NCBI GenBank assembly: GCA_963825865.1 | Contig: CAWGVG010000015.1 | Span: 32,001 to 96,000 of the forward strand | Length of the DNA: 64,000 bases | From: an uncultured Nitrososphaeraceae archaeon | GTDB lineage: Archaea; Thermoproteota; Nitrososphaeria; Nitrososphaerales; Nitrososphaeraceae | Direction: 5' to 3' | Part shown: one piece after another, positions 8,230 through 44,810 of the stretch | Position numbering within the stretch: the stretch's first letter is position 1 | Layout of the letters: every line of letters starts with the position of its first letter | Notes under the pieces: model-generated | Databases searched by the model: none | What the model was told of the DNA's origin: nothing | Seen by the model: only the letters and a program-made list of their open reading frames with translations | Made by a program: the position numbers and the translations under genes

Positions 8230-10727
8230 ATGGTAGCAGAAGCAGATTTCCATGATTTTGAAGTTCCTCAAAAACTAAAGGAGCAGAATGTAAAAAGAAT
8301 AGCAAAAGAAGGATCTACAATTCTGGTTCAAATGGATGGTAAAACAGTAAGGTTCGATATTGAACGTGATAAATGTCAAAAGACAATGACAAACTTTGAG
8401 AAGCAGTTAAAATTACTGGGAATAATCAATAAGGATTTCTTAAAAGAGCAAGTCATACTAATCTTAAGTGAACATTGGCCAAATATTATGAATGGTAAAT
8501 CTTCTGGTGGTAATGGTCATCAAGGACAGCAACAGCAGGATCAGGAGAAGCAACAACAACAAGAAGAAGAAGAAAATGGAATACCTGCTAAAGAGGTGTC
8601 CATATCTGAAGCATTACGAATGCATTCGGGTTATGTCAAAGTTAAGGACGGTATGATTTCAGGTTCTAGAAAATTGGAGAAGATGTCAGTTAATACGTTT
8701 TTTGTATGTGATTCATGTAAAATGATAAACAAAATAAGCACTTATTCACGTCCAAAATTTGCATTTGAAATAAATAAGTTAGAACATTCTAATAATACTA
8801 GAAAATGTGCCAACTGTTCTGTAAACACTATACCTACTGAGTATGATAACGATGTAAGAAATGCCATAAAAATAGAATTACAGGATGTAAAGACTTTTAG
8901 TGATTTAGAAAGACTACCAGCAGTACTTTTTGACGACTGTACTATTAACGTTGGTGTTGGTGAACAGGTTGCAGTTACAGGTCGAATTTATAAAATAAGA
9001 ATGAATAACAGTATGGTCCCATTCTTATTTGTAGATACGATTGAATATGAAAATAGAGAAGAGCTGTCTGAAGAACCTACTGATGAAGACATTTTAAAAA
9101 TCAAATCTATAATAAGTAAGGCCAGAGAGGAAAAAATTAGCCCAATTGATATACTGGTTAAAATGTTTGCTTCAACTATTATTGGATATGAATTTGTAAA
9201 GAAAGGATTACTTATCTGTGCTGCAAATACAGGTAAGGATTCTGTAGATAAAAGGCTTAGAATTAATGCATTACTAATTGGAGAAACAGGACTTGACAAA
9301 TCACCATTACTCAGGGCAGTAACCAAATTAGCAGCAAAAAGTAGGTATTGTTCAGCATTAAATTCTTCGATTAGAAGTCTTATTGGTATTGTAGAAAAGG
9401 AAGATGATAATCTTATGTTACGTTTAGGTCCAGTTACCTCTTCTAGTGGTGCTATCTGTGCCATTGACGAAATAGGCCGAATGCAATATGAGGATCAAGG
9501 ACAATTACTGAATGCATTACAAGAAGGTAAAATACCATTTGCCAAACATGGGTTTAACACAGTATTGGATGGTTCTGCTACTTATATCATGTCTGCAAAT
9601 CCAACCCACGACGGCACTTGGAGATATGAGAATAAGATAGAACGTGATGAAATACCTTTGCTGGGACCGTTCCTTGATAGAAATGATTTAGTATTTATAT
9701 TTAGGACTAACCGAATTAAATCAGAAATAATAAAATATGCATTTGATAAGGCCGATATATCAGAAGCAACTTATGCAGAGGAAGAAAAGAATCTTAAATT
9801 ACTAAGAACGTTAACATTCTATATTGTAAAAGGTTCAAACCTTCTTTATCTCATGAAGCTAAAAATATACTTATCCAGTTTTATGCTAGTGTAGCAACAC
9901 ATACAGGTTCTCCTAGATTATTTGATACAATCAGAAATATAGCATATGCTATTGCTAGGTTGAAACAAAAAGATATTATCGAAGTAGAAGATGCTAGTGA
10001 TGCTGTACAATTCTATAATGTTATACTACAACAGTTAGAGGAGATAGTTGTAGTAACAAAAGATCCTAGAGAGTTGGTAATAGAAGAAATCATAAAGATT
10101 CTGAATGGTTCAAAATACCAATTTGAATTTATCGAATTAATGAGAGACGTCTGTAATAGAAATGAGTTTGTTTCTAGATATTTTGGTAATGATTTCCATG
10201 TAGATACTAATAAAAAACTAAGAATGCTTCGAGATAGATTTGTCAAAGGAGGAGTAGATAATAGAATATTGATAGTTAGTTTATCACCATTGGTGTTAGC
10301 TTGGAAGTCTTCTTATGATAGTGATGATAAGGCTAAGGCTAAGGCTAAGGATGATAGTAAGACTGATATCCTAACTGACCAAACTGACCAAACTGACCAA
10401 ACTGACCTACCACTTTTTGACAGATCCCACGAAAATAATGTTATATCCGATGATAATAGTTCTAGTAAAATTGATAGTAATATCCACGATACTGATAAAA
10501 ATGACGATAATAATGATGACCCCTTGAAAAAAGCTCAGGTCAGTCAGGTCAGTCAGGTCAGTCAGACAGGCACTTCAGAAAATACGACTAGTAGAAAGTT
10601 CAAGTGTTTTTACTGTGACTTTTATCTAAGCAATGACGATGAACGTGTAAATCACATAAAGTCAGATCATAACGGCAAACTATCATGGCCGACTCAAGAG
10701 GACTTTAAGAATCGGATGGAGAGATGA
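8230..10727 (+). CDS. MCM-family replicative helicase of mobile-element type with a C-terminal C2H2 finger; indel near 9810
   Basis: Zn finger CDSC..CANC, Walker A GETGLDKS, Walker B CAIDEIGRM, sensor SANP, Arg finger LDRND, sensor-2 SPRLFD in the shifted frame, tail KFKCFYCD..H...H. Confidence 0.9.
10373..10569. repeat. Inverted arrays of 9-bp repeats inside the MCM 3' region (putative origin)
   Basis: (AACTGACCA)x4 at 10373-10407 and (TCAGGTCAG)x3 plus a partial copy at 10535-10569. The cores ACTGACC and GGTCAGT are reverse complements, with an AT-rich spacer between. Confidence 0.8.
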
Positions 10728-11778
10728 TGAATCTAGACGATGGATTAGATTTTATCCTCTCCCATTTTCCAAAAGATACACTATGGCCTAGGAAGATATC
10801 CACAAAGGCAACCGATAACCACCAAAGGTTAGTTTATAGTAAAGAGGAAGCACTTGCATGGTTTAAACTGCGTAACTATCTGGATTGCAGGATTAGTGCT
10901 TATCCACCCGTTGATGCTAGTCCTACTCACCATCGATCTTATTATAATAATGATAGACTTGGACCAGTCTAGGTTCAAGTCACGTCTAGCATTAGACAGA
11001 GCATTAGCTAGGACTTTAGATAAGATCAAAGATACATTTGATCTAGTAGTAGAAGAAAAAGAACAACCAGTGTACTGTATTATGGAACCGGAAACGGTTA
11101 TCATATCTATATCCCAATTGAGTCAAGATATGACTAGAAAGAAGGTCAGAGTTTACCAGATATACACAGGAACCATCTAAACACTTCCTACGGTTTGCAG
11201 AGCAATACCTATCAAATGGAAAAGCCGATCCTGAGCATTACAAAACTGTGTCATTTAAGAACTGCATGCTAAGGGTTCCGGGATTTATTAATTCGAAATG
11301 TGGTCAGCAGGTTAGAATTGTAAACAGATGGAATAATAACAATAACAGCAGAGCACCAATATTTTTACTTCTTGGCAGTTTTCTAGCCTACCTAGTAGAT
11401 CAAAATTCATCTAGTAGACGAATGTCATCAACATCAACATCATATACTAATAATAATAATAATAATAATAAAATCACTTGGATAGAATCACTTTTACAAT
11501 CACCGATATTATTATCAGATGGTAGAAAATACTGTTTATGGAGAATATTAGCACCCTATCTTATCAACATAAGAAGGTTGTCATATGAGCAATCATTTAA
11601 CATTATAATAGAATGGTTAGACAAGTGCAACCAGATAGAGAGAAGATTAGACTTTAACCCAAAGACAAAGCTAAAGGAAACACTTGCAAATGTAGGAAGT
11701 TATTACCCGATTAGCCTAGAGAAGTTAAAGCAAGACAATAATGAATTGTATCAAAAAATGATAGTGGAGCAAAGATAA
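10724..11778 (+). CDS. Archaeo-eukaryotic primase fused to a PriX-like C-terminal domain; several indels
   Basis: DCRISAYP, IMIDLD, TGNGYHIY (shifted frame), SFKNCMLRVPG, DGRKYCLWRILAPYLINIR; overlaps the MCM stop. Confidence 0.75.
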
Positions 11779-12993: not shown

Positions 12994-13608
12994 ATGTCGT
13001 CAACAACAATACCAGCATCAGTATTATCCACACTAACAGAGGAAGAACAAAAGAAATATCAAGAGAGATTAGCTGATAAAAGTAAGCCGTATTATTATGG
13101 ATATGATATCGAAAAAGATGCAAATGTAATTGTATATCCAGTCTCGAATGTCGATGAAGGTAAATCAATTACTCTTGATATAGCAAGAGGCAGAGGATTA
13201 CAGCTATATCCAAAAAGGAATATTCAGATAATGAACAAAATAAGAGGCATGGTAGTTGGAATGGGAGGATGTGGTCCTATAGATTCGATCCCCGGTGGTA
13301 TAAAGCAGCTTACAGAAGCTAATAGTGATGAGTTTACTATTAACTACATACTTGAAGACTTAGAAAAAGAAAAGAAGGTAGTCAAGGTATATGATTACAA
13401 GTTAGTTGGACCAGCATGGAATACACCAGACTGGGAGAAACCTCATAGAGAGTATGATCCTATTAAATTCAAATGGTATACGATAGAAAAAGCTGAAGTT
13501 GATGGTGTCCTTGAGATAAAGTGCAGGTATTGTAGTAAAAAGTTTCCTTCAGAACATGACATGAAAAAGCATTTCAACAATAGCCATACCCCACGACGTA
13601 GGGTATAG
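12994..13608 (+). CDS. Module gene A, copy 1: hypothetical protein with a C-terminal C2H2 finger
   Basis: CRYCSKKF...HFNNSH; paralogous to 21735-22205. Confidence 0.8.
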   Translation: MSSTTIPASVLSTLTEEEQKKYQERLADKSKPYYYGYDIEKDANVIVYPVSNVDEGKSITLDIARGRGLQLYPKRNIQIMNKIRGMVVGMGGCGPIDSIPGGIKQLTEANSDEFTINYILEDLEKEKKVVKVYDYKLVGPAWNTPDWEKPHREYDPIKFKWYTIEKAEVDGVLEIKCRYCSKKFPSEHDMKKHFNNSHTPRRRV

Positions 13609-13700
13609 TAGTAGTAGTATTATTAGTAGTGCTACTACTATCAGAGCATAAAGAATAAAGCTTTCCTTCATCATTATATAATTTGAGATAATAATCAAAA

Positions 13701-14173
13701 ATGATTGATAGTAATAATATGGCTGAAATGATGAAGGACATCTCAATTTATAATTTGGACCCATATAGGAAGATGGTGAAAAATACTAAAACCGGAGCAT
13801 ACATTATTTGCAATAATTCAACTAATGAAGTGGAAAGTAAAGGAGTGATAAATCCTAATCCTAATCCTCCTCCTGCTCCTGCCTTGAGTACCAGCATCAA
13901 AAAGGTTCTGAGCAAAATAATATTGTTGATAACAGCTTTGCTCTAGAGATGTATGGACTAGTGAATCTATGTTCGGGTAAAACAAGTACTTATGAAGATA
14001 TTCAAACTAACTATATGTCTGCTTATCCTTCTTCTCATCAACAACGTCAATATTTGAAGGGTTCACATCAGCAACAGAGAAATAATAACGTCAATAATAA
14101 TATACTGGCAATAGAGCTGTACGAACAGCTTGTTAACCAGTTTATCGGAGGAGGTAATCATAATGGCTGGTAA
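13701..14173 (+). CDS. Module gene B, copy 1; indels
   Basis: ORFs 13701-13946 and 13949-14173 together align with the 141-aa ORF at 22308-22733. Confidence 0.75.
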
Positions 14174-14309
14174 GAAATATAGTAAAAATATCAAACCAAA
14201 AACAGCACCGGGCTTGGAATCGAGTCATGGTCCTTTATCTGCTGACTCTTCGGTAAGTGGTAATCCAACTGTATTAGCTCCTAATAGAAAATCTAAGAAA
14301 GCAAAGTAA
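14163..14309 (+). CDS. Module gene C, copy 1: 48-aa basic peptide, not in the ORF track
   Basis: MAGKKYSKNIKPKTAPGLESSHGPLSADSSVSGNPTVLAPNRKSKKAK; conserved paralog at 22723. Confidence 0.7.
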   Translation: MAGKKYSKNIKPKTAPGLESSHGPLSADSSVSGNPTVLAPNRKSKKAK

Positions 14310-14463
14310 GTAAGGTAGTTAGTTAGCTCGTTAGCTAATAATATGCAAAAAAACGGCATAACTGAGCACAACCAGTTTACATGTACATTGTATATTGTCT
14401 ATAAGATAATATAAGATAATGTATAATATATAATATATTTATGATTGATTATTTATAATATAT

Positions 14464-14829: not shown

Positions 14830-15065
14830 TATACAGCTAGAAGGAATGGATGAAGAGGGAAAAATAAAATAGTAGATAACAAGAAGTTAACTTGCTCCCT
14901 AACATTTGACTTGATTGTTTCTCACTCAGGATAATAGTAATAATATGATATGATATAATAGTAGAAGAATAATAATACTCACTCATTATTATATTATATT
15001 ATTTTATTATCATTATCCTGTCTCTCATTCTTTCCTTCCTTCCATTTCTATTATTATTATTTACC
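14830..15065 (+). repeat. Structured ~200-nt dispersed repeat, copy 1
   Basis: TATACAGCT-AGAAGGAATG...CAAGAAGTT(A/G)ACTTGCT...CAGGATAA...TTATCCTG...TTCCTTCC; homologous to the copies at 17199 and 26902. Confidence 0.85.
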
Positions 15066-17198: not shown

Positions 17199-17375
17199 GA
17201 AGGAATGAATGAAGAGGGAGAAATAATAACAAGAAGTTGACTTGCTAATAACATCTTCATTTTACTATCAGGATAATAGTAATAATATGATATGATATTA
17301 TAGTAATGGTAAGCAGAACCAGCTCACTACTATTATATTATTATTATCAATATTGCTATTATCCTGCTGTCTCTT
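17199..17375 (+). repeat. Structured dispersed repeat, copy 2 (3'-truncated)
   Basis: GAAGGAATGAATGAAGAGGGA...CAAGAAGTTGACTTGCT...CAGGATAA...TTATCCTG. Confidence 0.85.
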
Positions 17376-17379
17376 CGAA

Positions 17380-20300
17380 AAGAGACAGGACACAAGTAAG
17401 AAAGCAATTTTTACATGGAGTAAATACGAGAAAGAAATTCCCAGCATAGATGAAATAAACAACTGGTTTAACTCTCAAATGGTAACGATGATCTGTAAAA
17501 ATAACATTGCCATAGTAACGGGCATCATATCCAGACTTTTAGTAATTGACATAGATGGTGAAGAATGCATAAAGCTATTTTATGAGATGGTTCAAAACAG
17601 GTTATCGGATAACTTACAACGTGAGATTGTCAATACACTAGCTGTTAGAACTGGTAGTGGGGAGGGTTTACAGATATATCTCAGATTCAACATTGAGGAA
17701 AAAGAAAACCCTCCAAACTTTTTCTTTACCCCCACCACTTGAACATAAAGAAATTAGAATAAAATGTAATGGTAGTTATGTAATAGGCTTGAACTCAAAA
17801 ACTAAAAATGAATATAAACTCAATTCTGAGGAGAAGAAACTAATTGTATTATTTTCCAAAAAAGAGATTAATGAATTACTTAGGGCTTTAGAACATATTA
17901 AGACTACTACTACTAGTAATGATGGTAATACTGGTAATAGGTACTACTAATAATAGTAAAAATGAACAAACCATCAAATTAGATGTAATCGAAATAGACA
18001 GGAACACAATCGTTAAAGGATTGTTATTCTAAAGGAAGGAGAGATGACATTGTATTTGCATTATCTGGATATTTACATAGAAGATACATAGATTAGCAAT
18101 CTACCATTGAAATTGTAAATTCTCTAATAACTCTATCAGAAGAGGGAAATGATGAAGAGTATAATTCTAGATTAAATGTAGTTCGTAGGACATACAAAAA
18201 GGATAGAAATAGTGATGAAAGTTACTGGACATAAATACTTACTATCAACGTTATCATCTATTTTAGATAAGGATGAAGTTAGAGCAAAACAAATTCTGCA
18301 TTCTGAGATAAATTCAGTAATAAATAAGGCATTAAAAGATGCTGGTTTTTCTTTTAGAATTGTTGATAATAATAATAACAACAATGATGACGATCCACAA
18401 GAAGAGGAAGAAAAAAAGTCAGCAGAAGAAAACAAACTCACTAAAGAACAGATTGATTTTGTCATAAATACAATGAAAAAGGAAGAGCATATGATGAACT
18501 ATCAATAAAACAGTTATTTTATGGAATGGATACTGCTTTTACTAAACGTCCTGCTTCTCATAATGTCAATTCAAAGATTCTGGGTTCAGGTAAAAATTAT
18601 TTGATGGAGTTAGTTTCTAACTATTTTCCCGAAAAGTATGTTATAAACATAAACCACATGTCAGACAAGGCAATTTTTCACAGAGAAGGAATTATGGTTA
18701 GAGAAAATCATGAAACTGGCAAACTTGAACCAATAAGACCTATAATAAAAAACCTTGAATCTAAGATTGAAGACTTACAAGAGCAAATTGAAACTGAAAG
18801 GCAAAAAAATAACAACCCTCCTACAGAAGAAAGTAGAAAACTGATTAAGGATAACAAAAAAAGAATTCAGGAAATCAATGAAGAGATTAAGGATATAGAA
18901 CAACATGCATTAAAGCAAATTGACCTTAACAATCAGATAATTCTCTGCCTCGATACACCACAAGAATCAATATATAATTCATTAATGAGCTTAGTCAGTC
19001 AGGATACTAAAAGAGGACAGAAGTATGAATTTGTAGAAAAATCAGGAATCTGGTAAACTAGGTACAGAAAATAATGTATTAATTGGTACTCCATTTATAT
19101 GCACCAGTCAGGTAATAGATGATACAAAAGGGGAACGTTTCCAAGAAAAGAATAGAAGGTTTACCAATGTAAACCCTGATACAAGTGATAAAAAAATTGG
19201 TACTGCAAATGATATAATTGTATTGCAAGGTGGCTACCTACCAGAAGAGTATGACGAACTGGTAGTAAGTAGATCAGATAAGGAAAAAGCCAGAAATATA
19301 GTCAAAATCATCGTAGCCAAGTTAAAGTAGCATACAAAGCACTTAGGCCCAAAAGAACACGGCATAAAGATTCCATTTGCTCTATCAATATCAGCATGTA
19401 TACCAACGACTCATGTTTGGAGTATGACGGTCACAGATAGAATAATGAAAATATCTTGCTATAATCACAAAAGTAAATATGGATTCAAGGCCAAAACTGC
19501 TAGACGTAAACACAGGTAAATTTTATCCTATATCTACGTACGTGGACTTTAAGGAAACTTTGAATTTAATGCAAGTTGCTGCTAGTGGTGTTAGGCCTTA
19601 CCTTGTAGACTGGTTCAATAATAGATTTCTTTCTGTATACAATGATTTAGGAGGAAAGCCAGATAAGATATACAATGATGATATAGGTAAATACGTAACT
19701 GTATCAAAGGAAAAACGTGCTGGACTTACAACCAAACAGATAGCAGATAGAATTGGAGAAAAGTTTGGAGGGTTAAAACTAAGCACTAAGGAATGTTATG
19801 AAAAAGAACCTAATACCTCTAATTAATCTGGGAATAATAGACCATATCGAAAGTGAGATAAGGAGAAATCAGCATATCTATTTTCCGGTCCAAGAAGATA
19901 CCCATCTATTCCATATTTTTGATTAAAAAGCTGGCCTAAAACTAAAAATACCAAGTCTTGAAAGATTTCCTAGTAAGAATTTTCTGAAATCACAATTTGG
20001 AATCTTGTCAAAGTCATCGTTTTTGGGGGGTGATATTTTTGAAAAAAATATTTCTTCATATAAGTTGGTAGATGTTGATGGGTCAGAGATTACAATAGAC
20101 CAATTGATAGAAAAATACTTTACAAATCCCGAAGAATGCTTTGTTAAAACATACAAAGAAGATTGAAGATAACACTAGCAATAAACAAGATAATAATGGT
20201 AATGGTAATGGTAGCACCTTAGAGACTTTGTTAAAATTAAAAGCAAGGCTACCAGCAATATACTATATCAAAGTCAGATTTTGATGAAACAAAAAAATAA

Positions 20301-21734: not shown

Positions 21735-22205
21735 GTGTTTGCTAAAATTTGCAGAGACAGATACGGTCTTAATGAGGCAAGAGGAAGAGGACTACAGCTA
21801 TATCCAAAGAGAAACGTCCACATAATGAACAAGATTAGAAGCATGGTAGTTGGAATGGGTGGGAGTGGTCCTATAGATTCTATCCCCGGTGGTATAAAGC
21901 AATTTACAGAAGCTAATAGTGACGAATTCACCTGTAATTATATTCTTGAAGATCTGGAGAAGGAAGGAAGTGTAGTAAAAGTATATCCTGTTATTAAGAC
22001 TGGTCCCGGTGATCCAAGAGATAATAGCTATTTTGGTCATCCTGTAAAGGAATATTCAAAGACTGGTTACAAGTGGTATACTCTACAACGAGCTGAAGCC
22101 GATGGTGTTCTTGAGTTACGTTGTCGGTATTGTTCTAAAGTATTCAAGACTGATAAGGAAAGGACTAAGCATTTCAACAATAGCCATACCCCACGTAGGG
22201 TATAG
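21735..22205 (+). CDS. Module gene A, copy 2
   Basis: ARGRGLQLYPKRN...CRYCSK...HFNNSHTPRRV, near-identical to 12994-13608. Confidence 0.8.
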   Translation: MFAKICRDRYGLNEARGRGLQLYPKRNVHIMNKIRSMVVGMGGSGPIDSIPGGIKQFTEANSDEFTCNYILEDLEKEGSVVKVYPVIKTGPGDPRDNSYFGHPVKEYSKTGYKWYTLQRAEADGVLELRCRYCSKVFKTDKERTKHFNNSHTPRRV

Positions 22206-22300
22206 TAGTATTATTAGTAGTAGTAGTACTGCTGCTGATATCATAGCATAAAAGATAAAACAAACTATCTTCATTATATAATTTGAGATAATAATCAAAA

Positions 22301-22733
22301 ATGATCGTTGGCAGATATCTTGAAAAATATAAGTGTGCAAGATCTAGGGGAAGGAAGGAAGATGGTGAAGCACACGAACGGCAGTTATATAATATGCAAT
22401 GGGAACCAGATCGAGCAAAGAGGTTTTGTAAATCCTGATCCTCCTGCTGCTACTCAGTACCAACAACAGCAACATCAATTGCAAAAAGCTACAATTCAAC
22501 GTAATAATAGCAATGCCCTAGAGATGTATGGATTAGTAAATAAGATAACTGGTAGATCGGACATTTACGATAATATTGAAACTATGACTACTGCTGCTTA
22601 CCCTCATCAAGGTCAATATCTAAAAGCATCAGAACAGCAACAAAGAAGTAATAATAATAATAGAAATGCAATCGAGATGTATGAAATGATTCAAAGCTTG
22701 TTCGGAGGAGGTAATAACATCAATGGCTGGTAG
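22301..22733 (+). CDS. Module gene B, copy 2
   Basis: 141-aa ORF from 22308. The ATG at 22301 lies in the conserved promoter context, implying an indel. Confidence 0.75.
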
Positions 22734-22866
22734 TAATAAGAAGAAGTATAATATCAAACCCAAAACAGCACCGGGCTTGAATGCAAGTCACTCCCCTTTA
22801 AGTGCCGATTCTATAGGTGGTAATCCTACAACTATAAATCCACGAAAAGCCAAGAAACCAAAGTAA
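22723..22866 (+). CDS. Module gene C, copy 2: 47-aa basic peptide, not in the ORF track
   Basis: MAGSNKKKYNIKPKTAPGLNASHSPLSADSIGGNPTTINPRKAKKPK. Confidence 0.7.
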   Translation: MAGSNKKKYNIKPKTAPGLNASHSPLSADSIGGNPTTINPRKAKKPK

Positions 22867-23356
22867 AAAGTTAGTTAGTTAGCTCGTGTATTATATAATT
22901 ATATAATAATAATAATAATTATAATATGATATCAACAAGAACGAAAAAACAGGATAAAGATAAACAAAATAATAAAGAAGCTATTGTTATAGCAGCAATG
23001 CGAGCAAAAGAAATTATGGGAAAAATACTTTTCTACCGACAATCCTATGATTAAATTTGAATGCTTGAGTAAGCTCCACGATCTCACATTAGACTTAGTA
23101 AACCTACAATATAGTGCTTACATGCAGAATTATAATTTTGATCATATCAAGAAATCTTCATCACCATTGAAGAGAGGTTATAAGCTTTCTAATTCACCTA
23201 ATACTAGGATGATACTAAGCAGGTTTATCAATAATAATGATGAGGATCTTCGATAACTATTAACACTATTCGTGTTAATAATAGCACGATTTATCAACAC
23301 TTTTAGCTACTAATATCATAATAGTAATAATAATAACGACAGAAGGAAGAAAGAAA

Positions 23357-23905
23357 ATGTCAAAGCTAACAAAAGAGCAACGTGAGGAACTAAAACATCT
23401 GGTACTAAATGGTATTGTCCATCATTTTACAATGTCTGAAATCCAGCAGTATATACTACAGAGCAAGCTAAAGACACAAATCAGTATTGACTATATCAAG
23501 CATCTGAAACTAGAATTAAAAAAGGATTCAAAGAAAGAATTAGATTATCTAGCTAAAGACAGATTTGCTTATACCCATTCTATATTCTTTGAACGACTTG
23601 AAGAGCTAAAATCATATCAAAGGACTCTGCATAATATAGTTTTGAACAATCAAGATAAACCAGAAGCACAGGTTAAGGCAATATCTGAGTTGAAGGATAT
23701 CACATTAGAGATTGTAAACTTGTATCAAATGTTACCTGTTATAGTAAGCAATCCTGGAGTACATGTAACTACTGTAGTAGATGATAATAATATTAATATT
23801 AATAATAATAATAATTACTCTACAAGAACAACAACAGCAACAATAAAACAACATCCAGACGGCTGCAACTGTACTGAGTGCTATGATCCAGAAGCAAAAT
23901 TCTAA
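23357..23905 (+). CDS. HTH plus helical-hairpin protein with terminase-small-subunit-like architecture and a Cys-rich tail
   Basis: N-terminal HTH-like FTMSEIQQYI..ISIDYI, long amphipathic helices, HPDGCNCTEC tail. The TerS assignment is inference. Confidence 0.5.
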   Translation: MSKLTKEQREELKHLVLNGIVHHFTMSEIQQYILQSKLKTQISIDYIKHLKLELKKDSKKELDYLAKDRFAYTHSIFFERLEELKSYQRTLHNIVLNNQDKPEAQVKAISELKDITLEIVNLYQMLPVIVSNPGVHVTTVVDDNNININNNNNYSTRTTTATIKQHPDGCNCTECYDPEAKF

Positions 23906-23923
23906 CAGCAAGAATAAAAGGAG

Positions 23924-23952
23924 ATACAGTATAAAAGGGGATTATACTGTAT
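23924..23952. terminator. Perfect 11-7-11 palindrome at the CRISPR trailer end (terminator and/or recombinase core site)
   Basis: ATACAGTATAA-AAGGGGA-TTATACTGTAT, between a converging gene and the array. Confidence 0.7.
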
Positions 23953-23956
23953 TTTT

Positions 23957-24316
23957 ATGTCAATCCTACCATAGTTCGATTCAAACAAGGCTCAAACGTG
24001 CCTGGTACTGCTGACTTATATCCCTTTCAATCCTACCATAGTTCGATTCAAACGTTCCTATCTGTACTAGTCCCTGGTGTTCCTGCTTCCTTTCAATCCT
24101 ACCATAGTTCGATTCAAACTCTTTTTTGTAAATAATCTGGGAAACCTGTTATTTCCTTTCAATCCTACCATAGTTCGATTCAAACATAACAGCAGATATT
24201 CTAAACGTTCATTATGCTTTCTTTCAATCCTACCATAGTTCGATTCAAACTTTCTGCTGTTGTAATGCCTGCTCCTGTTCTATGATCTTTCAATCCTACC
24301 ATAGTTCGATTCAAAC
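23957..24316 (-). CRISPR. CRISPR mini-array: 6 repeats of 30 bp, 5 spacers of 35-37 bp, no cas genes in the window
   Basis: Repeats at 23957 (degenerate terminal copy, ATGT for CTTT), 24024, 24090, 24156, 24221 and 24287. On the minus strand the repeat reads GTTTGAATCGAACTATGGTAGGATTGAAAG, with an ATTGAAAG handle. Confidence 0.97.
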
Positions 24317-24460
24317 TCCCTACTAATACATCCTAAATACACCCTTTATCTATAAACTTTCAGGGTCAACCTCCGATAATGCATTCTCTTTATAAATGCT
24401 AACCATTTTCAGAGGCATAATAAAAATTATATAATGAAGGAGGATTTAAAAAGTCTACAC
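24317..24460 (-). promoter_or_regulatory. CRISPR leader with an archaeal BRE-TATA promoter
   Basis: Minus-strand GAAAGTTTATAGA at 24361-24349, ending 32 bp before the first repeat, on the side opposite the degenerate repeat. Confidence 0.7.
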
Positions 24461-24485
24461 CTCTTAATGCTGGATTGAGGTTAAG

Positions 24486-24779
24486 ATGTCATCTCCAACC
24501 CCTAATCTAATCGAATGGCCAGCCCTTTACCTTATTGCCCAAGTTATAGGGTTTATAGTAGCAATAATAGTGATATTAAAAGTTACACATGATATTACCA
24601 AGAAGCTTACCAGTATAGAAAAAGATGTTGAATATCTCAAAAATACCGTAGAAAAACATACAGAAAAACTAGAAGAATTCACGTATACATATAAGGCAGA
24701 CATATTAGTCAGGCAAGCTCTAGATAAAGCTGAAGAAAAGAAAAAGAAAGAAAGAGAAGGAGAAAAGAAGAAAGAATGA
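24486..24779 (+). CDS. TM plus coiled-coil hypothetical protein
   Basis: One TM then a heptad pattern; ATGA overlap with the next gene. Confidence 0.7.
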   Translation: MSSPTPNLIEWPALYLIAQVIGFIVAIIVILKVTHDITKKLTSIEKDVEYLKNTVEKHTEKLEEFTYTYKADILVRQALDKAEEKKKKEREGEKKKE

Positions 24780-25039
24780 GCAGTATTCCAATAGACTACA
24801 GTAATGAGAAGATGGATTATTTAATGAAGAAGATGTATCTTCATATGCTGACAAAAGAGGAAGCAAGGGAACTTATGCTATTGGTAGAAAAGGAAAAACA
24901 AAAAGCAGTAAAGTATGATGACAAGGAATACCAAGAAATTTTGTCTGGTTTACTGGACTCATTGAAGATGTATATGGCAGGAAAAATTAATCTTTATGAG
25001 AGCAGTATTGTTGATAGGTTGAAAGTTTCAAACGTCTAG
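24776..25039 (+). CDS. Helical hypothetical protein
   Basis: 87-aa ORF, translationally coupled to the previous gene. Confidence 0.7.
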   Translation: MSSIPIDYSNEKMDYLMKKMYLHMLTKEEARELMLLVEKEKQKAVKYDDKEYQEILSGLLDSLKMYMAGKINLYESSIVDRLKVSNV

Positions 25040-25152
25040 TAATCGGTTATCATTAATGTATATCATGTTTATCATCAAGCAATCCATTATCACCGAGAAA
25101 CAAAGAAAAAGAAATAATTAATTATTACTTGTCTCTATTATTGTGATTCGAA

Positions 25153-25458
25153 ATGACAAATAATAATAATAATAATAATAATATAATAATCGTCGATGTT
25201 ACAGTTGCAGACAACCAGATTCGAGCATTGAAACCAAAAGATGAATATCAAACTATGTTAATGCCAAATACTGATACTGAAAAATTATTATGGTGGAATT
25301 CTGTAGATCCAGGTAGGCTTAACAATCGTCTCTATGGCACCTTGAAAGGCCAAGCATTGAAGAAAGCACAGAAATTAGTTGATTCTCAAGGATCAATTTC
25401 TACGAGTGGAGAATATGGCAGTATAGAAATTTCAGAAGAAGATTTTATTCCACTTTAA
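25153..25458 (+). CDS. Hypothetical protein
   Basis: 101-aa ORF. Confidence 0.55.
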   Translation: MTNNNNNNNNIIIVDVTVADNQIRALKPKDEYQTMLMPNTDTEKLLWWNSVDPGRLNNRLYGTLKGQALKKAQKLVDSQGSISTSGEYGSIEISEEDFIPL

Positions 25459-25639
25459 AGTAAAAAATAAAGAATAAGAAAAATATAATATAATATAATA
25501 TAATGTCTAAATAAAATATCAATCAAAGTATAATTATAACTTGCCTCTCAAAGTATAATTATAATTTACACCATATAGGATAAACGTAAATCAATCAGTC
25601 TTTTGCTTCAAAATATAGAGGGGGTTATACTGTATTTTT

Positions 25640-25780
25640 ATGTCAATCCTACCATAGTTCGATTCAAACTAATTAGTGCACTTACCTCTACATTCAAGAC
25701 ATCTGACTTTCAATCCTACAATAGTTCCATTCAAACGTTTGAGTCAGCCCTAATGCTATTTCTATATGTAATTCCTTTCA
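25640..25780 (-). CRISPR. Second, leaderless CRISPR remnant: 2 repeats, a 6-nt repeat stub and 2 spacers
   Basis: Repeat 25640-25669 (same degenerate terminal repeat), 37-bp spacer, repeat 25707-25736 (2 mismatches), 38-bp spacer, CTTTCA stub at 25775. Confidence 0.9.
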
Positions 25781-26752: not shown

Positions 26753-26901
26753 GCAAAAATAATTATGCTTGGAATATTTTTAACTACCCTCTTATGCAGG
26801 TATAGCCAAATTATACAAGGACCGATTAATTATATAATAAGAAAGGTATACTAAAAAATAAAAACAAGTAAACAAAGAAATAATTATTTCCTTGTTGCTA
26901 T

Positions 26902-27094
26902 TATACAGCTAAGAAGGAATGAATGAGGGAAAACAAATAACAACAAGAAGTTGACTTGCTGAACATCTTCATTTTACTCTATCAGGATAATAATAGTAAT
27001 ATGATAGTAGAGTAATGGTAATCAGCTCATTATTATATTATTATTGTTATCCTGTTCCTTCATTCCTTCCTTCCTTTCTATTTCTATTATTTAC
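26902..27094 (+). repeat. Structured dispersed repeat, copy 3
   Basis: Outer stem GAAGGAATGAA (26913) / TTCATTCCTTC (27059); inner 26-bp stem spanning 26983-27054. Confidence 0.85.
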
Positions 27095-27207: not shown

Positions 27208-28927
27208 TTGGCAACCTCAGCAGCATGCCAGTATAAAAATGAATTTTATGTTGACTTTACATGTGACCAACCCACCAGAGACACAGAAAGCAAATTCTGT
27301 ATATTTCATGATACAAATTATCTTAAAGACGATAACTATGATAAACACAAGGAAGAAGTAACAAAGAGATTTGAAGATAAACTATCAGAATATTCTTCCA
27401 AAAACATGCCTTTGAAATTTATAGGCTATTGTTTGCCAGAGATTTCATTTAAAGATGAGAAATTTAGTGAAGAGATTCACTTTAATGAAGCCACGTTTTC
27501 TGGAGTAGCAAACTTTGATGGAGCTACATTCTCCAAAAAAGCTCACTTTGATGGAGCTAAATTCTCCGAAGAAGCATACTTTAGTTATGCTACATTCTCC
27601 AAACCAGCTCACTTTTCTGGAGCTAAATTCTCCGAAGAAGCAAACTTTTCTGTAACCAAATTCTACGAAGAAGCAAACTTTTCTGTAACCAAATTCTACG
27701 AAGAAGCAAACTTTTCTGGAGCTACATTCTCCAAACATGCATACTTTTATAGAGCTACATTCTCCAAACGAGCAGACTTTTATGGAGCTACATTCTCCAA
27801 ACCAGCAGACTTTTCTGGAGCTACATTCTCCATAGCCGAGTTTGAAAAGGTCAGGTTCGTAGAGATAGCCAACTTTGATGAAGCTGAATTCAAGGTAGCA
27901 GAATTCACTGAAGTTACATTTTCTAAAGAAGCTAATTTCATTTATGCTAAATTTTCAAACTTAGATTTTTCTCACACTAAATTCTTAAATGAAGTTCGTT
28001 TTTCAGAAGAAAAAAAAATAAAAATTTTTGATGGTGAAACTTTATTCAGATACACAATTTTTGAGCAGCCCAACAAGGCTATATTTGATACAAATGATTT
28101 ATCCAGGGTATCATTTGCTGGTAGTGACATATCTAAGGTAACTTTTACAGATAAAGTAAGGTGGGGTGGAGATGACGGTCTGAAGGTGATTGAAGAAGAA
28201 TGGTTAGAAAAATTAGGAAAGGAAAAGAAGCTAGAAAGTGAACACGAACAAGAAAATGAAATCAAACGAATAAGCTTGGACCTTGTATTATATGTATATC
28301 GTAGGTTAAGAGAGAACTATGAGTTCAAACTCAAATTTGACGAAGCAGGTAAATTCTTTATAAAAGAAATGGAATTAAAAAGAAAGTACAGAGAAGCTCC
28401 TTCACTATCTGCTGTTTTCAAACGTAAATTAATTAAATTCCTTAAGAAATTAAAACTTGTAAATGCTAATGTACAAGAGCCAAAGATTGAATATGTTCTT
28501 AAACAAAATGGAAGACTCAGAAGACATTTCTCGTTAACTGGTTTGTATTATCATCTTTCTACTTATGGTGAAAGCATAGTTAAACCAACTATAATTGGTG
28601 CAATAACGGTTGGACTTTCAACATTGTTTTGGCTACTTCAAAATAATCCAACAGTCGAACCTTCTATTTCTTTTATTGCTAATAATAAATTACATATGGC
28701 TAAAACAGACTTCTGATTTCATTAATGCTACTCAGATTTGGAACAATACACATACATTGAAGGCTTTTGAAAGAAGTCTTGCAGATTTTCTCCCTTTGCT
28801 TTCATTACCAGGTGATATCAAAGTAGGAGTAATAGATTATGTTATCAAAATAGTAGGTGGTGCTCTTACTTTCGGTCTTCTTCTAATAGCTTTGAGAAGG
28901 AAATTTGAAAGAAAATATACACGTTAA
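27208..28927 (+). CDS. Pentapeptide-repeat protein with C-terminal membrane segments; indel near 28700
   Basis: A(N/D)FSGATFS repeats including an exact 30-bp duplication; N-terminal FCIFH; YGES..P and ALRRKFERK in the TM region. Confidence 0.85.
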
Positions 28928-29725: not shown

Positions 29726-32700
29726 TTATTTGATATAAATTGCAGGTTTGAATGGTCTAGCAGACTTTGCTTTTAATCCAAGATCACGGTTTTCTGGTAA
29801 ATCATCTTCTTCATTCCCTTCCTCTCCTCTTGCTTCCTCCTGATAGACAGTTATGTGAGCCTGAGAATTTCCACTTTCCAAAGACAATAACATTCTAGCA
29901 TCATTTATAGGAAATATTTCATCAAAGTTTGCTGCCTAGTTTCAGTCTTCTGTTTCTTGCTTCAATTGGAGATGATAGAATGTCTTCTATTATTTTTCTT
30001 ATCAAGTTTGGATTAGTCTTTGCCTTTGTAGCTGTTTCTCGATCCTTGACTAGTTGTTTCATAATGTCTCCAAAGTTAGTTTTGCTTTCCAATAACATAG
30101 TTGCAAGAATCTTTTGATAGATTTGCAGTTTCCAACGCGCTGAAGTATAAATGACTATTTTTGTAGGAGTTATGCTAGTAACTTTGACAATCTTTTGTAG
30201 ATCGGATATCAAATTCATAATTAGCTCTTCTGATTCTTCTGCTACTGGATCGTTTTTATCTTCATCTACTATTGGCCAGCCGGCGAAAATAATAGAAGTT
30301 GTTGCTGATGATGAGGATGATGATGATAAGGATAAATTATCCGTACTGCCACCAATTTTTTCCCATACTTCTTCACTTATAAATGGCGCAAATGGAGCGA
30401 GCATCCTTATGCGAGCATCAAGAAACAAAGACAAGGTAGCGGCAATAATATATTCTCGTCTTTTGGCTTTGACTCTCTTCTTGTACCACTGCAAGTCTTG
30501 ATCAAGTGAATATAGTATAAGGTGTAATGCTTCTCTCGCTCTTAATTTCTCCATAGATATTGTAGTATTTGCAATAGTGTGCTGCAATTTGCTGATAAGC
30601 CATCTGTCTTCTAATTCCATTATTGTTTTTGGGACTTGTGTTGGTGTCTCTGCTTTTGGCTTAGTCTGATCCTGCTCTTTCTTCTTAATCGAGTACTCTA
30701 TTGCCATATCATAAATATCACATAGCTTGGACTGAATTCCCTTAACTGCATCAAATGAAAAATCAGCATCCTGTAAAAGCTCTGCTGAGGTCAGTATGGC
30801 CACACGAATTGCGTCAGCACTATGCTCTTTGATAGCAGCACGCAATGGAATAATATTTCCAAGCGATTTTGACATTTTTTTTCCTTCCATTAACACAGAT
30901 CCATTGACGACAATTTGCTTAGGCCAATTTTCCTCCTCAAAAATTGTTGAATGGTTAAAAATAAAAAATGACAAATGATTTGGAATTAAGTCTCTCCCAG
31001 AATGTCTAGCATCTACAGGATAAAAGTAGGAAAATTCGTTTCTTATCTGCTTAATTGATTCTGTAGAGATTTTGCAATCTGCAGCAACCTGCATGTTATC
31101 GCCCTTCCCCAATAGAATAAAATCAAAAAAAGAGTCCTTTAGATCATCAGTATTAATGATCGCATTATTAACATTACCATTAAGATACTTTGCAAGAATA
31201 TAGTACGCCATATAAATAACAGAGTCAGAGAGACTTTCGATAATCCACTCGTGATCCCAAGGTAATTTAGTACCAAGTCCTGATTTTCTTGCACATGCCC
31301 TCTCTCTTAACCAATCAATTACGTAGTTGAATTCCTGTCTAATTTCTTCTGGGACTATGATCATTGAGTTAATACATTTATGTGCTAAATCTTTCCATTT
31401 CTTATCACCATAATTTAGAAACCATTGATCATTCAACAGTTTAACCACACACTCAGTGCCACATCTGCATCTAACAGGTTTGTTTATCAGTTCAAACATT
31501 ATGTCAGCAGAACCAGTTGCAATAATTTCCTTCTTTATCTTTTCTTTTGCCTCATATACTGTCATACCTGCATACTTACCAGTATTTTGCGACATTTTTC
31601 CACTGTAAAATTCATAAGAGTATATCTCACTAGTGGCCTTTTCTAGTTGCGGATCCTGTTGATTCTTTATATTGAATTTCTTTATGATTTGCGCTGCAGG
31701 TATCATATTTTTATTATTATTAATGTCGCCAGAGTAGCTTTCTGATTCAATAATTGTTATAGGTTTTAGTTCTGCTACTTTTAACCGGAATTCATTATTG
31801 TTATTAATAGAAAGATCGTGTTTTAGATCTTCCAGAGCCTGATAATCATACGGGGCGTGTGCCGGAACAGACATTACAACTCCTGTGCCACTATCAGTAT
31901 CAACAAACAGTGCAGGATACAATGGAATTGAAACCTCTTTAATTGGGTCCTTAGCATATTTGCCGATTATTTCTTTTCCCTTTAAGGTAGACTCTATTGC
32001 AACTTGATGATTTAGAAATTCTAATTTTTTGGCAGCCTCATTGCTAACAATCCATCTTTCATTATCAATCTGTATTTTGACATATTCAATTTTTGGATTC
32101 ACCCAAAGGTTAGTGACACCATAAACAGTTTCCGGCCTCAGGGTTGCTGCTGGAATTATGGACCCATCTTCTAACTCATATTTAATCAGCGTATACTCAT
32201 TAAAGTCTGGTTCAACATCGCCAATAGTATCATGCTGGCTAACTGGGTTTTGGTCATTTGGACACCAACCAACTGGATGTGAGCCCTGTACAATCAACCC
32301 TTTTTTCAGCAGGGTTCTAAATTGCCATGAAATAAACTTTGAATATACTTTGTCGATGGTAGTAAATTCGCGTCTCCAGTCTATCGAATATCCCATCTCC
32401 TTCATGCCAAGTTTGATCTCATTATGAAAATAATTCGCAATTTTAACAGGCTCAACAAAGACTTGCTATGGTATTGTCCGAAACATGATAAATCTTCCGA
32501 AAGGTCTCAAATAGTTCTTCATCTCCAGATGCAACTCTACGTGACATCCCAAGAATAGGTGTTCCTGTGTAATGAAAACCCATTGGAAACAATACATTAT
32601 AGCCTTTCATTCTCATGTAACGAGCATGAGCATCAGCTAGAGTGTAAGTCCTTCCATGTCCGATATGTTGAGGGGAGTTTGGATAAGGGAAAGCTACTGT

Positions 32701-32838
32701 TATAAAATATTTTTTTTTGGTAAGATCGGGATCGCTATGGAAAATCTTTTTCTCTTCCCATATTTGACGCCATTTTTCTTCAATTGAATTCCAGCCTATT
32801 ATTTTTTTATTGTTAGTGGGATCGGTAGCGCTTGCCAT
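29726..32838 (-). CDS. leuS: Leucyl-tRNA synthetase; indels near 32450 and 29930
   Basis: [18 protein letters not shown]-terminal [11 protein letters not shown]. Confidence 0.97.
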
Positions 32839-32845
32839 GTTTCTA

Positions 32846-35580
32846 TTATCCTCTAATAGTTTTCATAACTAATTCTTCTGCCGAAAGCAAGGCTTCATTT
32901 ATTTTGTTCCCAAGCTTGATGCTGCCACCGCCCTGTCCAAATCTATCATCACCTCCTCCTGAACCCCCTAGTTGAACTGAAAGTTGTTTTGCTATATTAC
33001 CAGCCTTAATTTTCTTTCTGGCTTTTTCACCTACAAATACAACCACACGTATTCCATGGCTTTTTGACATCAATGCAACATAGATCAGGGATGGATCAAT
33101 TTCTATACATTTTTCACCTATGGCAATATAATATTCATCATCGAGTTCCTCATCATAAACACTGTAATATTTGATGCCATCGAGTGATAGTTGTTTTGCC
33201 TCATCAGATATTGAGTTTGCTATTGGAAGAGCTATTTTTCGGAGCATCGTTTTAATTTTTTTCTTTACCGCTTCTGTTTCTTCTATACTCTTTTGAAATG
33301 ATTCAACAATCTTTTCCTTGCTTGAACCCAGAGACTGTGCAATAGCAGTAAGCTGATTTTCCTGCTTTTGTATATAGTTTATCGCTGGTTCGCCAGCAAC
33401 AAATTCTAATCTGACTACACCATCTTGGATTCTTTCAGCTTTAGTAATTTTAATGATCCCTATTTCACCAGTCTTGTCGACATGGGTTCCACCGCAGGCT
33501 TCAATATCCCATCCCTCAACATTTACAATTCTGACGTTGTTAGTTGGAACTACACCGCCTTGATATATTCTAAAGGTGTACTTTTGTTCAGCATCACCAC
33601 GATCATATATCTTGATGGTGACCGGCAAATCTTGTCTGATTATATTGTTAGCAGTCTTTTCAATTCTCTCAACCTCTTCTCTATTCAGAGCAGAATGGTG
33701 CGTAACGTCAAGCCTGGCATAGTTTTCTTCTTTAAATGCCGAGTTCTGCCAGACCCACGATCCAAGGTTAAATCTGGCAGATGTATTGAGTACATGGGTA
33801 GCGGTATGATGTTGGGTAATCAAGTTCCGTCGTCGGTCATTTACAATTCCATGTACAGCTTTGCCTTCGGTAAAATTTCTAGTATCATGTAATTTATGAA
33901 CTACAATATGTGCTTGCTTTATAACTTCGAGCACCTTTGTACCATCAAGCTCGCCCGAATCAGGTTCTTGACCACCTCCACGTGGATAAAACGCAGTTTG
34001 ATCTAATATGACATATTTCGCGTCCACTACTTTGAGAACCTTGCTAGTAAATTCACGAATTGAATCATCTTCGTAATATAAAAGCCTTGTAGGTGCAAGA
34101 CCATCTATACCATAAATTGGTTTTTGAGTCTGTGCCGAATTTGGCTTGTATGAAGTTCAGCAAGTTTAGTATAGAATGTAGGTGGGATATTCTCTATAGC
34201 TCCGACTTCCATTAAAAAATCTGGAGTAATGCCATCGGATTCATACATCTTTACAAGATCATCGACCATTATTTTCTTTTTATTACTTTTGATAGAATTA
34301 GCAATTGCATTCATTCTTTCTCTAGACCCTACGTATCTGCTGGATTCAATCTGCAATATCGTCCTGACGTCTTCTCTATGCTCTTCAAGTTCCGGATACA
34401 TCTGCTTCAGATAATCAATATGCATGTCAGCGATATCTTCAAGTTTTACACTCCAACCTAATCTTTCCAAAATTGAAAGTGCCCTTCTTAGAATAACTCT
34501 AAGATTATACCCTCCGCCTATATTTGATGGCAAAGCGCCATCTGAGATCGAAAATAATAAAGTACGAGTATGATCTGCAATAGTGTAAATTGCTTCGTAA
34601 GGAGCGGTAATTTTTTCAAGTCTCTCATCGGATATTTTTAATTCTTTAGCAACCAATGATTTTAATGCTTTGATGTCACCGCGCATATCATCAAGTTTAC
34701 CAGAAGCTTGCTCCAAAGTATTTGGATAGAATATCTGAATTTTCAAGGGTTCCACCAATGTCAACCAATTTACTCACTACTGGACCAAAAGAGCAATCAT
34801 AACTTGTCGGTGTTCCCATTGTAATCCACGAAAATCGCTCAAGTCCTGCTCCCATATCGATAATCTTGTTAGCCATTACATGATAGTTGTTTTGGTTTCC
34901 TTCAAATTCGGTAAAGACAGCATTGCCCAGTTCGAGCCCGCACACAAAATATTCTAGAGAATAACCAAATGCACCTGCTCCCATCCAAACATCTTCTACA
35001 AAAGTAATTTCATCTGATTTTATTCCGAGTCCATTTGTAAGCAACCTATAATCCAACTCAATGCACCTGTCTTTCCAATATCCACCTGGTGCATCTGCGT
35101 TACAGATTTGCCCAATCATACAGAAACCTGTGTAGTGTCTGCCACTCAAGCCTACATTTTCAATGTCATTGAAGCGCAAGCACATTTGTGGAACAAGAAG
35201 GGGATTTGTAGGCAATTCAAAAACTACCTTGTTTTCCATTACTCTTTGAAAGTCGACAATTGATGCAATCGTAAAATACAGATCCTCACGCCATCTGCAT
35301 ACAACAGGATATCGTCTGATTACAGAGTGACCATTTGACTGAAAATACTCTTCTATTTTCTTCCAAGCATTAACGTAATCCAGTCGTTTGTTTGTCGGAG
35401 GTTTACCTATAAAGCTATAATCCTCATGATCTGGACAGAAAATCCTTTCAAACTGCGCCCAAAAGAATTTGCCGCAAGCGCTCATTTCTGTCGCCTAAAA
35501 CCCAGTCTATCAAATAATGATACTTTGTAATATCTATCAGGGTCAGATGAAAAAAGAGCAGCAAGTTCCTTTTTCTCCAA
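32846..35580 (-). CDS. alaS: Alanyl-tRNA synthetase; indels
   Basis: [24 protein letters not shown], editing motifs HTATH and CGGTH, GGSGGG tail. Confidence 0.97.
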
Positions 35581-44630: not shown

Positions 44631-44726
44631 GCCGTCGTAGCTCAGCCTGGGAGAGCACTCGACCCGATATGTTCGGGAGTGAAGCTGAAGACCGAGCTGT
44701 CGTGAGCTCAAATCTCACCGACGGCA
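44631..44726 (+). tRNA. tRNA-Phe(GAA) with a 22-nt intron at position 30/31 (44662-44683)
   Basis: Acceptor stem GCCGTCG/CGACGGC; spliced anticodon arm CTCGG-CTGAAGA-CCGAG; bulge-helix-bulge at the junctions. Confidence 0.93.
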
Positions 44727-44810
44727 CTTTTGAATTGTATTACAAAACAAAAATTGTTTACAATCAATTCAAACAATTGAAGACAAATTTAAAATAGAGA
44801 AATTTCTATT

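Follow-up and report, generated by a model that had tools for sequence, protein, structure and literature searches.

The window analysed here is a stretch of 64,000 nucleotides (nt) from the genome assembly of an uncultured Nitrososphaeraceae archaeon (GCA_963825865.1, contig CAWGVG010000015.1, positions 32,001 to 96,000 of the forward strand). Its central feature is a short CRISPR array at positions 23957-24316 on the minus strand, referred to below as array 1. Array 1 is accompanied by a smaller repeat locus (micro-array 2), and both are located within an insertion of approximately 26 kb that encodes an integrase, an MCM-family helicase and primase-related proteins (table 1). An original prediction, made from the letters of the window alone, had described array 1 as an expression-competent orphan array on a mobile element.

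Anatomy of array 1

A total of six copies of a 30-nt repeat, which reads GTTTGAATCGAACTATGGTAGGATTGAAAG on the minus strand, make up array 1, with start-to-start distances of 65-67 nt. A scan of the window with this sequence (up to three mismatches) returned eight matches, all on the minus strand, and none in 100 shuffles, and thereby recovered the five identical repeats, the degenerate terminal repeat and the five unique spacers that had been predicted. The spacers are 37, 36, 36, 35 and 36 nt long and no two are alike; their guanine-cytosine (GC) content ranges from 0.28 to 0.50 and is highest in the two oldest. The hallmarks of a CRISPR array were all found at the locus: at least three near-identical repeats of 23-47 nt, unique spacers of similar length, a promoter-bearing leader at one end and, at the other, a degenerate repeat. 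Furthermore, a k-mer scan of the whole assembly for arrays yielded 20 periodic regions, of which 19 were recognized by inspection as coding tandem repeats and one, the array-1 locus, as CRISPR. These findings identify array 1 as a true CRISPR array. Rfam (gathering threshold) had no match anywhere in the window, and Tandem Repeats Finder returned nothing at array 1; both outcomes are expected for repeats that are interrupted by spacers and were therefore not weighed against it. The repeat RNA alone folds weakly (-4.3 kcal/mol, z = -1.5). The remark that several spacers read as open coding sequence holds true and is uninformative, since random 36-mers from the genome have on average 3.1 out of six frames open and the probability that at least five out of six spacers are open in frame 1 is 0.11.

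The minus strand was taken as the transcribed strand because the repeat ends with ATTGAAAG, the degenerate repeat is distal, and a conserved leader and a TATA box are located upstream; the leader and the trailer end in table 1 were therefore assigned on this strand. For type I-A, I-B, and III repeats, a 3' end of the form ATTGAAAG is the usual Cas6 tag. The leader carries the TATA box TTTATAAA at 24389-24396, 72 nt upstream of the first repeat, and a conserved box, ATCGGAGGTTGACCC, at 24363-24377, so that the predicted leader with a TATA element was found in place. From the arrays of the fetched loci, 66 leaders were extracted and aligned locally, one by one, to the 110-nt leader of the window. 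The highest score among the 66 (58) was obtained for the leader of a 26-repeat array (L035), followed by a 13-repeat array (L073, score 52), by L074 and L034 (score 49 each), and by the array adjoining the type I-B operon in the related genome G003 (L027/L100, score 44). A separate alignment of the 104-nt window leader with the leader on a metagenome contig described below (L101) scored 36 with 29 out of 38 positions identical, compared with 15.3 +/- 2.5 (maximum 28) for shuffles. Overall, the array-1 leader is homologous to at least 12 leaders that precede large arrays, with their TATA boxes in register, and it shares with its relatives the TATA box, the conserved box and a G-rich junction between leader and repeat. 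Judged by these alignments, it belongs with the conserved leaders that precede large or cas-adjacent type I-B arrays in the Nitrososphaeria.

At the opposite end, the predicted trailer hairpin proved to be real: the 101-nt trailer folds with -21.7 kcal/mol (z = -3.67) and none of 200 shuffles folds as well. On the plus strand the same hairpin comes after the stop codon of the open reading frame (ORF) at 23357-23905, and it may terminate both this ORF and array 1. A scan for terminators of the bacterial type found none at the trailer. The expression competence that is predicted for array 1 is thus based on two features, the conserved TATA-bearing leader and the hairpin.

The repeat belongs to a family that is widespread among the relatives of the host. 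With up to three mismatches it is present in 14 out of 41 related genomes (the genome of the window included), and a BLAST search with the array identified it in 58 out of 151 genomes of the family, a tally that includes one unpublished genome, G092, from which no conclusion is drawn. When the two central bases were left free, a scan of one genome per species returned 54 stretches in records titled Nitrososphaeraceae, Nitrososphaera, Nitrosopumilus, Nitrosocaldus, Nitrosotalea or Thaumarchaeota/Nitrososphaeria, with two titled only as archaea; the IMG/VR collection contained no member of the family. Together with the LeuRS of the window, for which an Atlas look-up returned Archaea and most often Thermoproteota, this distribution assigns the host to the Nitrososphaeria. 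The exact repeat was identified on a single metagenome contig of 1146 nt (L101), which encodes, in this order, the C-terminus of Cas1b (300.9 bits, truncated), Cas2 (41.5 bits), a leader homologous to that of array 1 and two exact repeats, and which supplies the cas locus with a matching repeat that the original prediction had left to be located. A repeat with one mismatch forms the array of G003 (contig C29), where it adjoins genes for Cas6, a large subunit without a family assignment, Cas7/Cst2, Cas5b, Cas3, Cas4, and Cas1b. This operon is type I-B, and one-mismatch repeats are also located beside type I-B operons in G035 and G032. The array-1 repeat is therefore of the family found beside type I-B cas operons. 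The predicted Cas6-type repeat end fits, and these near-identical repeats together with L101 support type I-B among the types that had been considered.

The insertion and its second repeat locus

In three related genomes (G009, G007, and G002) that represent three genera of the same family, 200-320 nt separate the homolog of the ORF at 3340-3543 from the LeuRS gene, at the 3' end of the latter. In the window, the LeuRS gene starts at 29922 and approximately 26 kb separate it from this ORF. Because the flanking genes are adjacent in the three relatives, the DNA between them was identified as an insertion, in agreement with the predicted location of the array on a mobile element. The GC content is 29-36% inside the insertion as compared with mostly 36-39% in the housekeeping flank on the right. 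No convincing att direct repeat, a feature of integrated elements, was found between the two ends, which are therefore only approximate. With an integrase, a replication module and an empty site in three genera, the insertion has the characteristics of a cryptic integrated element of the Thaumarchaeota. The ORFs that follow the one at 17353-17742, up to approximately 19826, look like fragments of one larger gene, and many further ORFs of the insertion have no family match; virion and packaging families (capsid, terminase) were absent among the 10 insertion ORFs that were scanned with PHROGs. Since the carrier is mobile and contains no match to a cas gene, array 1 has the location of a mini-CRISPR array borne by a mobile element. 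The genome contains many integrase paralogs and, on another contig, a copy of the MCM region with 83% identity, which indicates that it is rich in elements of this kind.

Micro-array 2 is located 1.3 kb from array 1 and contains a single spacer. Its terminal repeat has the same degenerate form as that of array 1, and the two loci have in common, at 98% identity, a 51-nt block made up of trailer and terminal repeat. Array 1 and the ORFs at 24486-25458 occupy the 1.7 kb between these 51-nt blocks, a segment that is absent from related contigs of soil metagenomes. Neither micro-array 2 nor the solitary repeats in other parts of the genome have a recognizable leader, the alignment scores being 12-19.

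Table 1. Positions of the repeat loci and of the annotated genes of the insertion within the window
Feature	Position	Strand	Basis or remark
Insertion carrying both arrays	3544-29921		synteny and composition; ends approximate
Tyrosine integrase	5617-7148 (ORFs 5617-6654 and 6705-7148)	+	Pfam Phage_integrase 19.6 bits, below the cut-off of 27.1; PHROG integrase families E = 8.5e-8 and 1.5e-6
MCM-family replicative helicase	8230-9894	+	Pfam MCM 102.5 bits
PriX-like primase subunit	11248-11778	+	Pfam PriX 32.7 bits
ORF with Prim-Pol domain	17353-17742	+	Pfam Prim-Pol 34 bits
Trailer hairpin	23924-23952	-	11-bp stem, all A-T; 7-nt loop; followed by a T-rich tract on the minus strand
Degenerate terminal (trailer-end) repeat	23957-23986	-	two mismatches at the 3' end, ending GACAT
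Spacer S5	23987-24023	-	37 nt
Spacer S4	24054-24089	-	36 nt
Spacer S3	24120-24155	-	36 nt
Spacer S2	24186-24220	-	35 nt
Spacer S1	24251-24286	-	36 nt
Perfect repeats of array 1 (five)	24024-24053, 24090-24119, 24156-24185, 24221-24250, 24287-24316	-	identical in all 30 positions
Leader-proximal perfect repeat	24287-24316	-	repeat scan
Leader	24317-~24404	-	TATA box, conserved box, G-rich junction to the first repeat; local alignments
Micro-array 2	25640-25736	-	terminal repeat 25640-25669; 37-nt spacer 25670-25706; repeat with two mismatches 25707-25736

Several further features of the insertion were recorded. A stretch of approximately 1.1 kb is duplicated within the element (13173-14331 and 21767-22887, 8.6 kb apart, 68-82% identical, two ORFs in each copy), and an intergenic repeat is present in three copies (14840-15064, 17199-17366, and 26880-27094) upstream of the ORFs that start at 15196, 17353, and 27208. 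The insertion may be a composite or may contain repeated regulatory regions. The ORF at 27208-28716 encodes a pentapeptide-repeat protein of 502 amino acids (Pfam 125.8 bits) through a run of 33-nt DNA repeats and has paralogs on other contigs. A gene for an HtrA/DegP-like serine protease is located at 4137-5340 in the inserted DNA, to the left of the integrase, and another copy lies beside the cas6 stub on contig C18 that is described below; the protease may be cargo or a recurrent neighbor of such elements.

Possible function of array 1

Arrays without cas genes on mobile elements are a known arrangement, of which array 1 is not the first example. The portogloboviruses SPV1 and SPV2 of the Sulfolobales carry leader-preceded cas-less mini-arrays that use the Cas proteins of the host and contain spacers matching related viruses (Medvedeva et al. 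2019, PMC6858448). Two thaumarchaeal integrative and conjugative elements (ICEs), NCAV2-E1 and NitIsl-E1, carry cas-less arrays with repeats equal to those of the type I-B array of the host (Krupovic et al. 2019, PMC6563490), and these two large arrays are the only ones described for the Nitrososphaeria in the excerpts of that report. As far as the excerpts of both papers go, array 1 resembles the SPV1/SPV2 arrays in its location on a mobile element without cas genes, in its promoter-bearing leader of the cellular type, in a repeat that matches a cellular system, in the leaderless stand-alone repeats on the same element and in a spacer content that appears to vary between related elements. It differs in spacer number (five in array 1 and one in micro-array 2, as opposed to the one or two that define the viral arrays), in its carrier (an integrated MCM/primase element of a mesophilic archaeon of the Nitrososphaeria rather than a virus of hyperthermophiles), in the type I-B family of its repeat, in a host assembly without cas genes and in the lack of a spacer target in the searches. 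With the arrays of NCAV2-E1 and NitIsl-E1 it shares the host phylum, the absence of cas genes, the integrated carrier, a repeat of the type I-B family and the presumed use of Cas in trans, whereas those arrays contain 96 and 69 spacers and reside on ICEs in hosts with a matching type I-B system, compared with five spacers, a cryptic integrase/MCM element and a cas-less assembly here. Among cellular systems the closest relatives are the type I-B loci of the Nitrososphaeraceae, such as that of G003, which differ from array 1 by a single nucleotide in the repeat and share the leader family, the spacer length and the 8-nt ATTGAAAG end; unlike these loci, array 1 has no adaptation or effector gene beside it or elsewhere in the assembly.

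Because its anatomy matches that of the Sulfolobales virus mini-arrays and the thaumarchaeal ICE arrays, array 1 was interpreted as a portable guide cassette. With moderate confidence, array 1 is best understood as a mini-CRISPR array of the type I-B family that has a leader but no cas genes, is cargo of the integrated MCM/primase element and serves as a guide cassette for Cas proteins supplied in trans. The leader promoter would drive synthesis of a minus-strand precursor of CRISPR RNA (crRNA) that ends at the trailer hairpin and the T-tract. Cas6 acting in trans would cut the repeats 8 nt from their 3' end and so create the 5' tag AUUGAAAG, and the type I-B Cascade and Cas3 of the host or of a co-resident Cas-encoding element could then use the five guides against competing mobile elements. 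Cas1b-Cas2, likewise in trans, could add spacers, a step that is conceivable because the leader is canonical. The element would profit only in a Cas-proficient cell or in the presence of a Cas-bearing element. Without Cas6 and an effector complex array 1 could not act in the present host, in whose assembly no Cas was found. The cassette is probably idle there, provided that Cas is encoded neither in the ~18% of the genome that the assembly lacks nor on a co-resident element. The identity of the five array-1 repeats favors a guide cassette, compared with the degenerate solitary repeats of the same genome and the degenerate orphan arrays of relatives, as do the anatomy of array 1, its leader family, the exact repeat beside cas1b-cas2 on L101, the one-mismatch repeats beside type I-B operons, the location in the insertion and the hints of spacer turnover given below.

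Several results weigh against this interpretation, beginning with the host. In the host assembly (4.98 Mb in 62 contigs, 81.8% complete, 2.8% contamination) there was no match to the Cas1, Cas6_C, RAMPs, DevR or Cas2 families, and matches to cas3_core were all sub-threshold (best 72.9 bits, cut-off 102.45). The orphan status that had been predicted from the absence of cas genes in 64 kb therefore extends to the entire assembly. A tblastn search with 47 ORFs from three type I-B loci found no cas fragment within the window and, over the assembly, only a cas6 stub, a Cas3-like fragment and a Cas8b-like ORF. The stub (C18:51028-51285, locus L040) encodes the N-terminal 69 amino acids of a protein with 59% identity to the Cas6 of G003, contains an in-frame stop after residue 48, and is located 22 nt downstream of a degenerate repeat, beside the HtrA-like protease gene and a copy of the ORF at 28610-28927; it looks like the remnant of a lost type I-B locus. 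The Cas3-like sequence (C23:58905-59519) is an isolated fragment of 204 codons that resembles the C-terminal half of the helicase (33% identity), and the Cas8b-like ORF is present in two copies (C22:7327-8559 and C20:221-1318) that are approximately 40% identical to the middle of the protein in the Cas8b position of a relative and have no adjoining cas genes. Degenerate solitary or paired repeats are found on C42, C44, C46, C4, and C60. A complete type I-B locus (cas6, cas8b, cas7, cas5, cas3, and cas1/2/4 with an array) was found neither in the window nor in the assembly. Since only cas fragments and degenerate repeats remain, a type I-B system has apparently disappeared from the host lineage. 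The regular, element-borne array 1 is not part of these remnants.

One of the solitary repeats (C46:55932-55961, one mismatch) is located in a 100-nt gap between the genes for the chromosomal MCM and a response regulator, 8 nt from the start codon of the latter and on the opposite strand.

The spacers provide a second set of results that count against a guide function. Protospacers for the six spacers of array 1 and micro-array 2 were found in none of the collections searched, and the spacer search of virus and plasmid databases and of the own genome, from which the original prediction expected targets on other mobile elements, returned no protospacer. In the own genome (blastn-short and an ungapped scan) the best ungapped match covered 27 out of 37 positions. 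Wobble-degenerate patterns of the six spacers had no match in IMG/VR (0/6), the S3 pattern, the only one used there, had none in the Joint Genome Institute metagenomes, and the array as query gave nothing better than E = 0.3 in phage and plasmid collections. No protospacer was present in 689 kb from 111 fetched loci, and spacer S1 was not found with up to three mismatches in any of 237 other genomes of the family. The searched collections may lack the targets. In a BLAST search of 151 family genomes with 300 nt of the array, the 150 matches listed were all anchored in the repeat. In the reverse direction, 626 unique spacers of relatives had no match longer than 22 nt in this genome except for its own spacer on C42, and a comparison of spacer peptides with the genome gave only noise. 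A repeat was found within ~1.5 kb of a homolog of the ORF at 23357-23905 at none of 19 loci, a negative result for a conserved pairing of this gene with arrays.

Two leads on targets were not borne out. A recurrent match of six amino acids to the micro-array spacer was traced to an unrelated multi-copy insertion sequence that is identical to the spacer at only 18 out of 37 nt. Spacer S3 and homologs of the array-adjacent gene (G022, G061, and G082) share 12 nt and a 'P.YLQK'-like motif, but only 15-17 out of 36 nt are identical and the peptide is present in none of four database homologs. The multi-copy element itself, probably an insertion sequence, is identical at ~17 loci of the genome (e.g., C6:38221 and C21:61321).

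The distribution of array 1 and of its exact repeat supplies the remaining points against a guide cassette. The exact repeat variant was found in none of 185,579 species genomes scanned. Among the sequencing runs listed for the region there was none of RNA. Logan contigs from four soil runs of four studies, which are short DNA sequences of low depth, cover parts of the region with 85-100% identity. Contigs of two runs (X1 and X5) contain a joint from 23896 to 25594 and represent forms without array 1 and without the three small ORFs at 24486-25458, which means that the array is dispensable. In a contig of a third run (X2) a joint from 25669 to 24318 places the terminal repeat next to the leader of the window (a zero-spacer form), and loose ends after the repeat at 24055 (X1) and before 24218 (X3) continue from the same repeat into other sequence. 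These data suggest related forms with other spacers, with no spacer or with no array 1, and give hints of spacer turnover, which would speak for the guide cassette; the contigs with loose ends could, however, belong to different arrays that have this repeat, and not to this element.

The foremost alternative, possible although rather doubtful, is that array 1 is an inert relic which was captured from a type I-B locus, hitch-hikes in a lineage without CRISPR-Cas and is functionless everywhere. The lack of cas genes and of protospacers, the forms without array 1, the degenerate and leaderless micro-array 2, and the decay of CRISPR-Cas in the genome (the C18 stub with its degenerate repeat, the C23 fragment and the solitary repeats) are all in line with a relic. 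The same decay is seen in relatives: G014 contains a cas1 pseudogene next to a two-repeat array, the complete genome G047 contains an array with cas6 and a partial cas3, but no Cas1, behind it, and G012 and G093 contain diverged orphan arrays. However, neutral decay in an AT-rich element should erode repeats and leader, as it did in micro-array 2 and the solitary repeats, whereas the five array-1 repeats are identical in all 30 positions and the leader retains the TATA box and the ATCGGAGGTTGACCC box of its family. The possible spacer differences between related forms suggest recent activity, and the absence of cas genes refers to an assembly that is incomplete.

Two further alternatives assign the repeats a role directed at foreign CRISPR-Cas. 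An unlikely one is that the element acts as a parasite of mobile CRISPR-Cas that contributes only a leader-competent type I-B array, in a host that lost its own system: foreign Cas6, Cascade, and Cas1-Cas2 would be loaded and updated with the resident guides and thereby turned on competitors or titrated away. If this were the case, the 51-nt blocks and the variable presence would make the 1.7-kb segment with array 1 an exchangeable cassette. Little probability was likewise given to a decoy or hijacker RNA, in which repeat transcripts of array 1, micro-array 2 or both might mainly sequester or re-programme the Cas6 or Cascade of an incoming or host type I-B system in the manner of RNA anti-CRISPRs or crRNA-like regulators, instead of guiding a defense of the host. 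The element carries two repeat-bearing loci, one of them degenerate and leaderless, and any Cas encountered in a host without Cas would be foreign. In the excerpts of the published accounts, type I-B systems of Nitrososphaera are themselves located on integrated elements (PMC6563490), and phages carry RNA anti-CRISPRs that derive from solitary repeat units (PMC10651486). Array 1 resembles the latter in the presence of CRISPR repeats on a mobile element without cas genes, but it has a canonical leader of the adaptation type and real, unique spacers of normal length, as guide arrays do, and only micro-array 2 is similar to a degenerate solitary unit, by its architecture alone.

The refuting scenario that was named with the original prediction, a chromosomal remnant from which an adjacent cas operon was deleted, is highly improbable: decayed cas remnants do occur elsewhere in the genome and in relatives such as G014, but it is contradicted by the synteny of G009, G007, and G002, where neither an array nor a cas gene lies between the neighboring flanks, by the position of array 1 in the middle of the insertion among genes of the element, and by the lack of cas fragments in the window.

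What sets array 1 apart from the cases described in the excerpts of the cited reports is the number of five spacers (rather than one or two, or dozens), the cryptic MCM/primase carrier and the decay of CRISPR-Cas in its host. Nothing shows more clearly than cas-less arrays on mobile elements that such elements borrow CRISPR machinery for their own conflicts. Array 1 leaves the knowledge of how CRISPR works unchanged and adds to these cases a small, canonically led array on a cryptic MCM/primase element, in a host of the ammonia-oxidizer type with decayed CRISPR, and the soil contigs hint at a turnover of its spacers from soil to soil. Transcription and processing, spacer acquisition in trans and the targets of such arrays in soil ammonia-oxidizer communities are questions for which it is a compact test case.

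Split reading frames and a tRNA gene

To the right of the insertion, at 29922-35485, LeuRS and AlaRS are each encoded by two or three neighboring ORFs, although each gene is one uninterrupted frame in the relatives. Within the element, the integrase and the primase region show the same kind of splitting. This pattern suggests indel errors in the assembly, and 'pseudogene' calls in this genome therefore need care. Further downstream, a tRNA-Ile (GAT) gene is located at 44631-44727, and its length of 97 nt suggests the presence of an intron, consistent with an archaeon.

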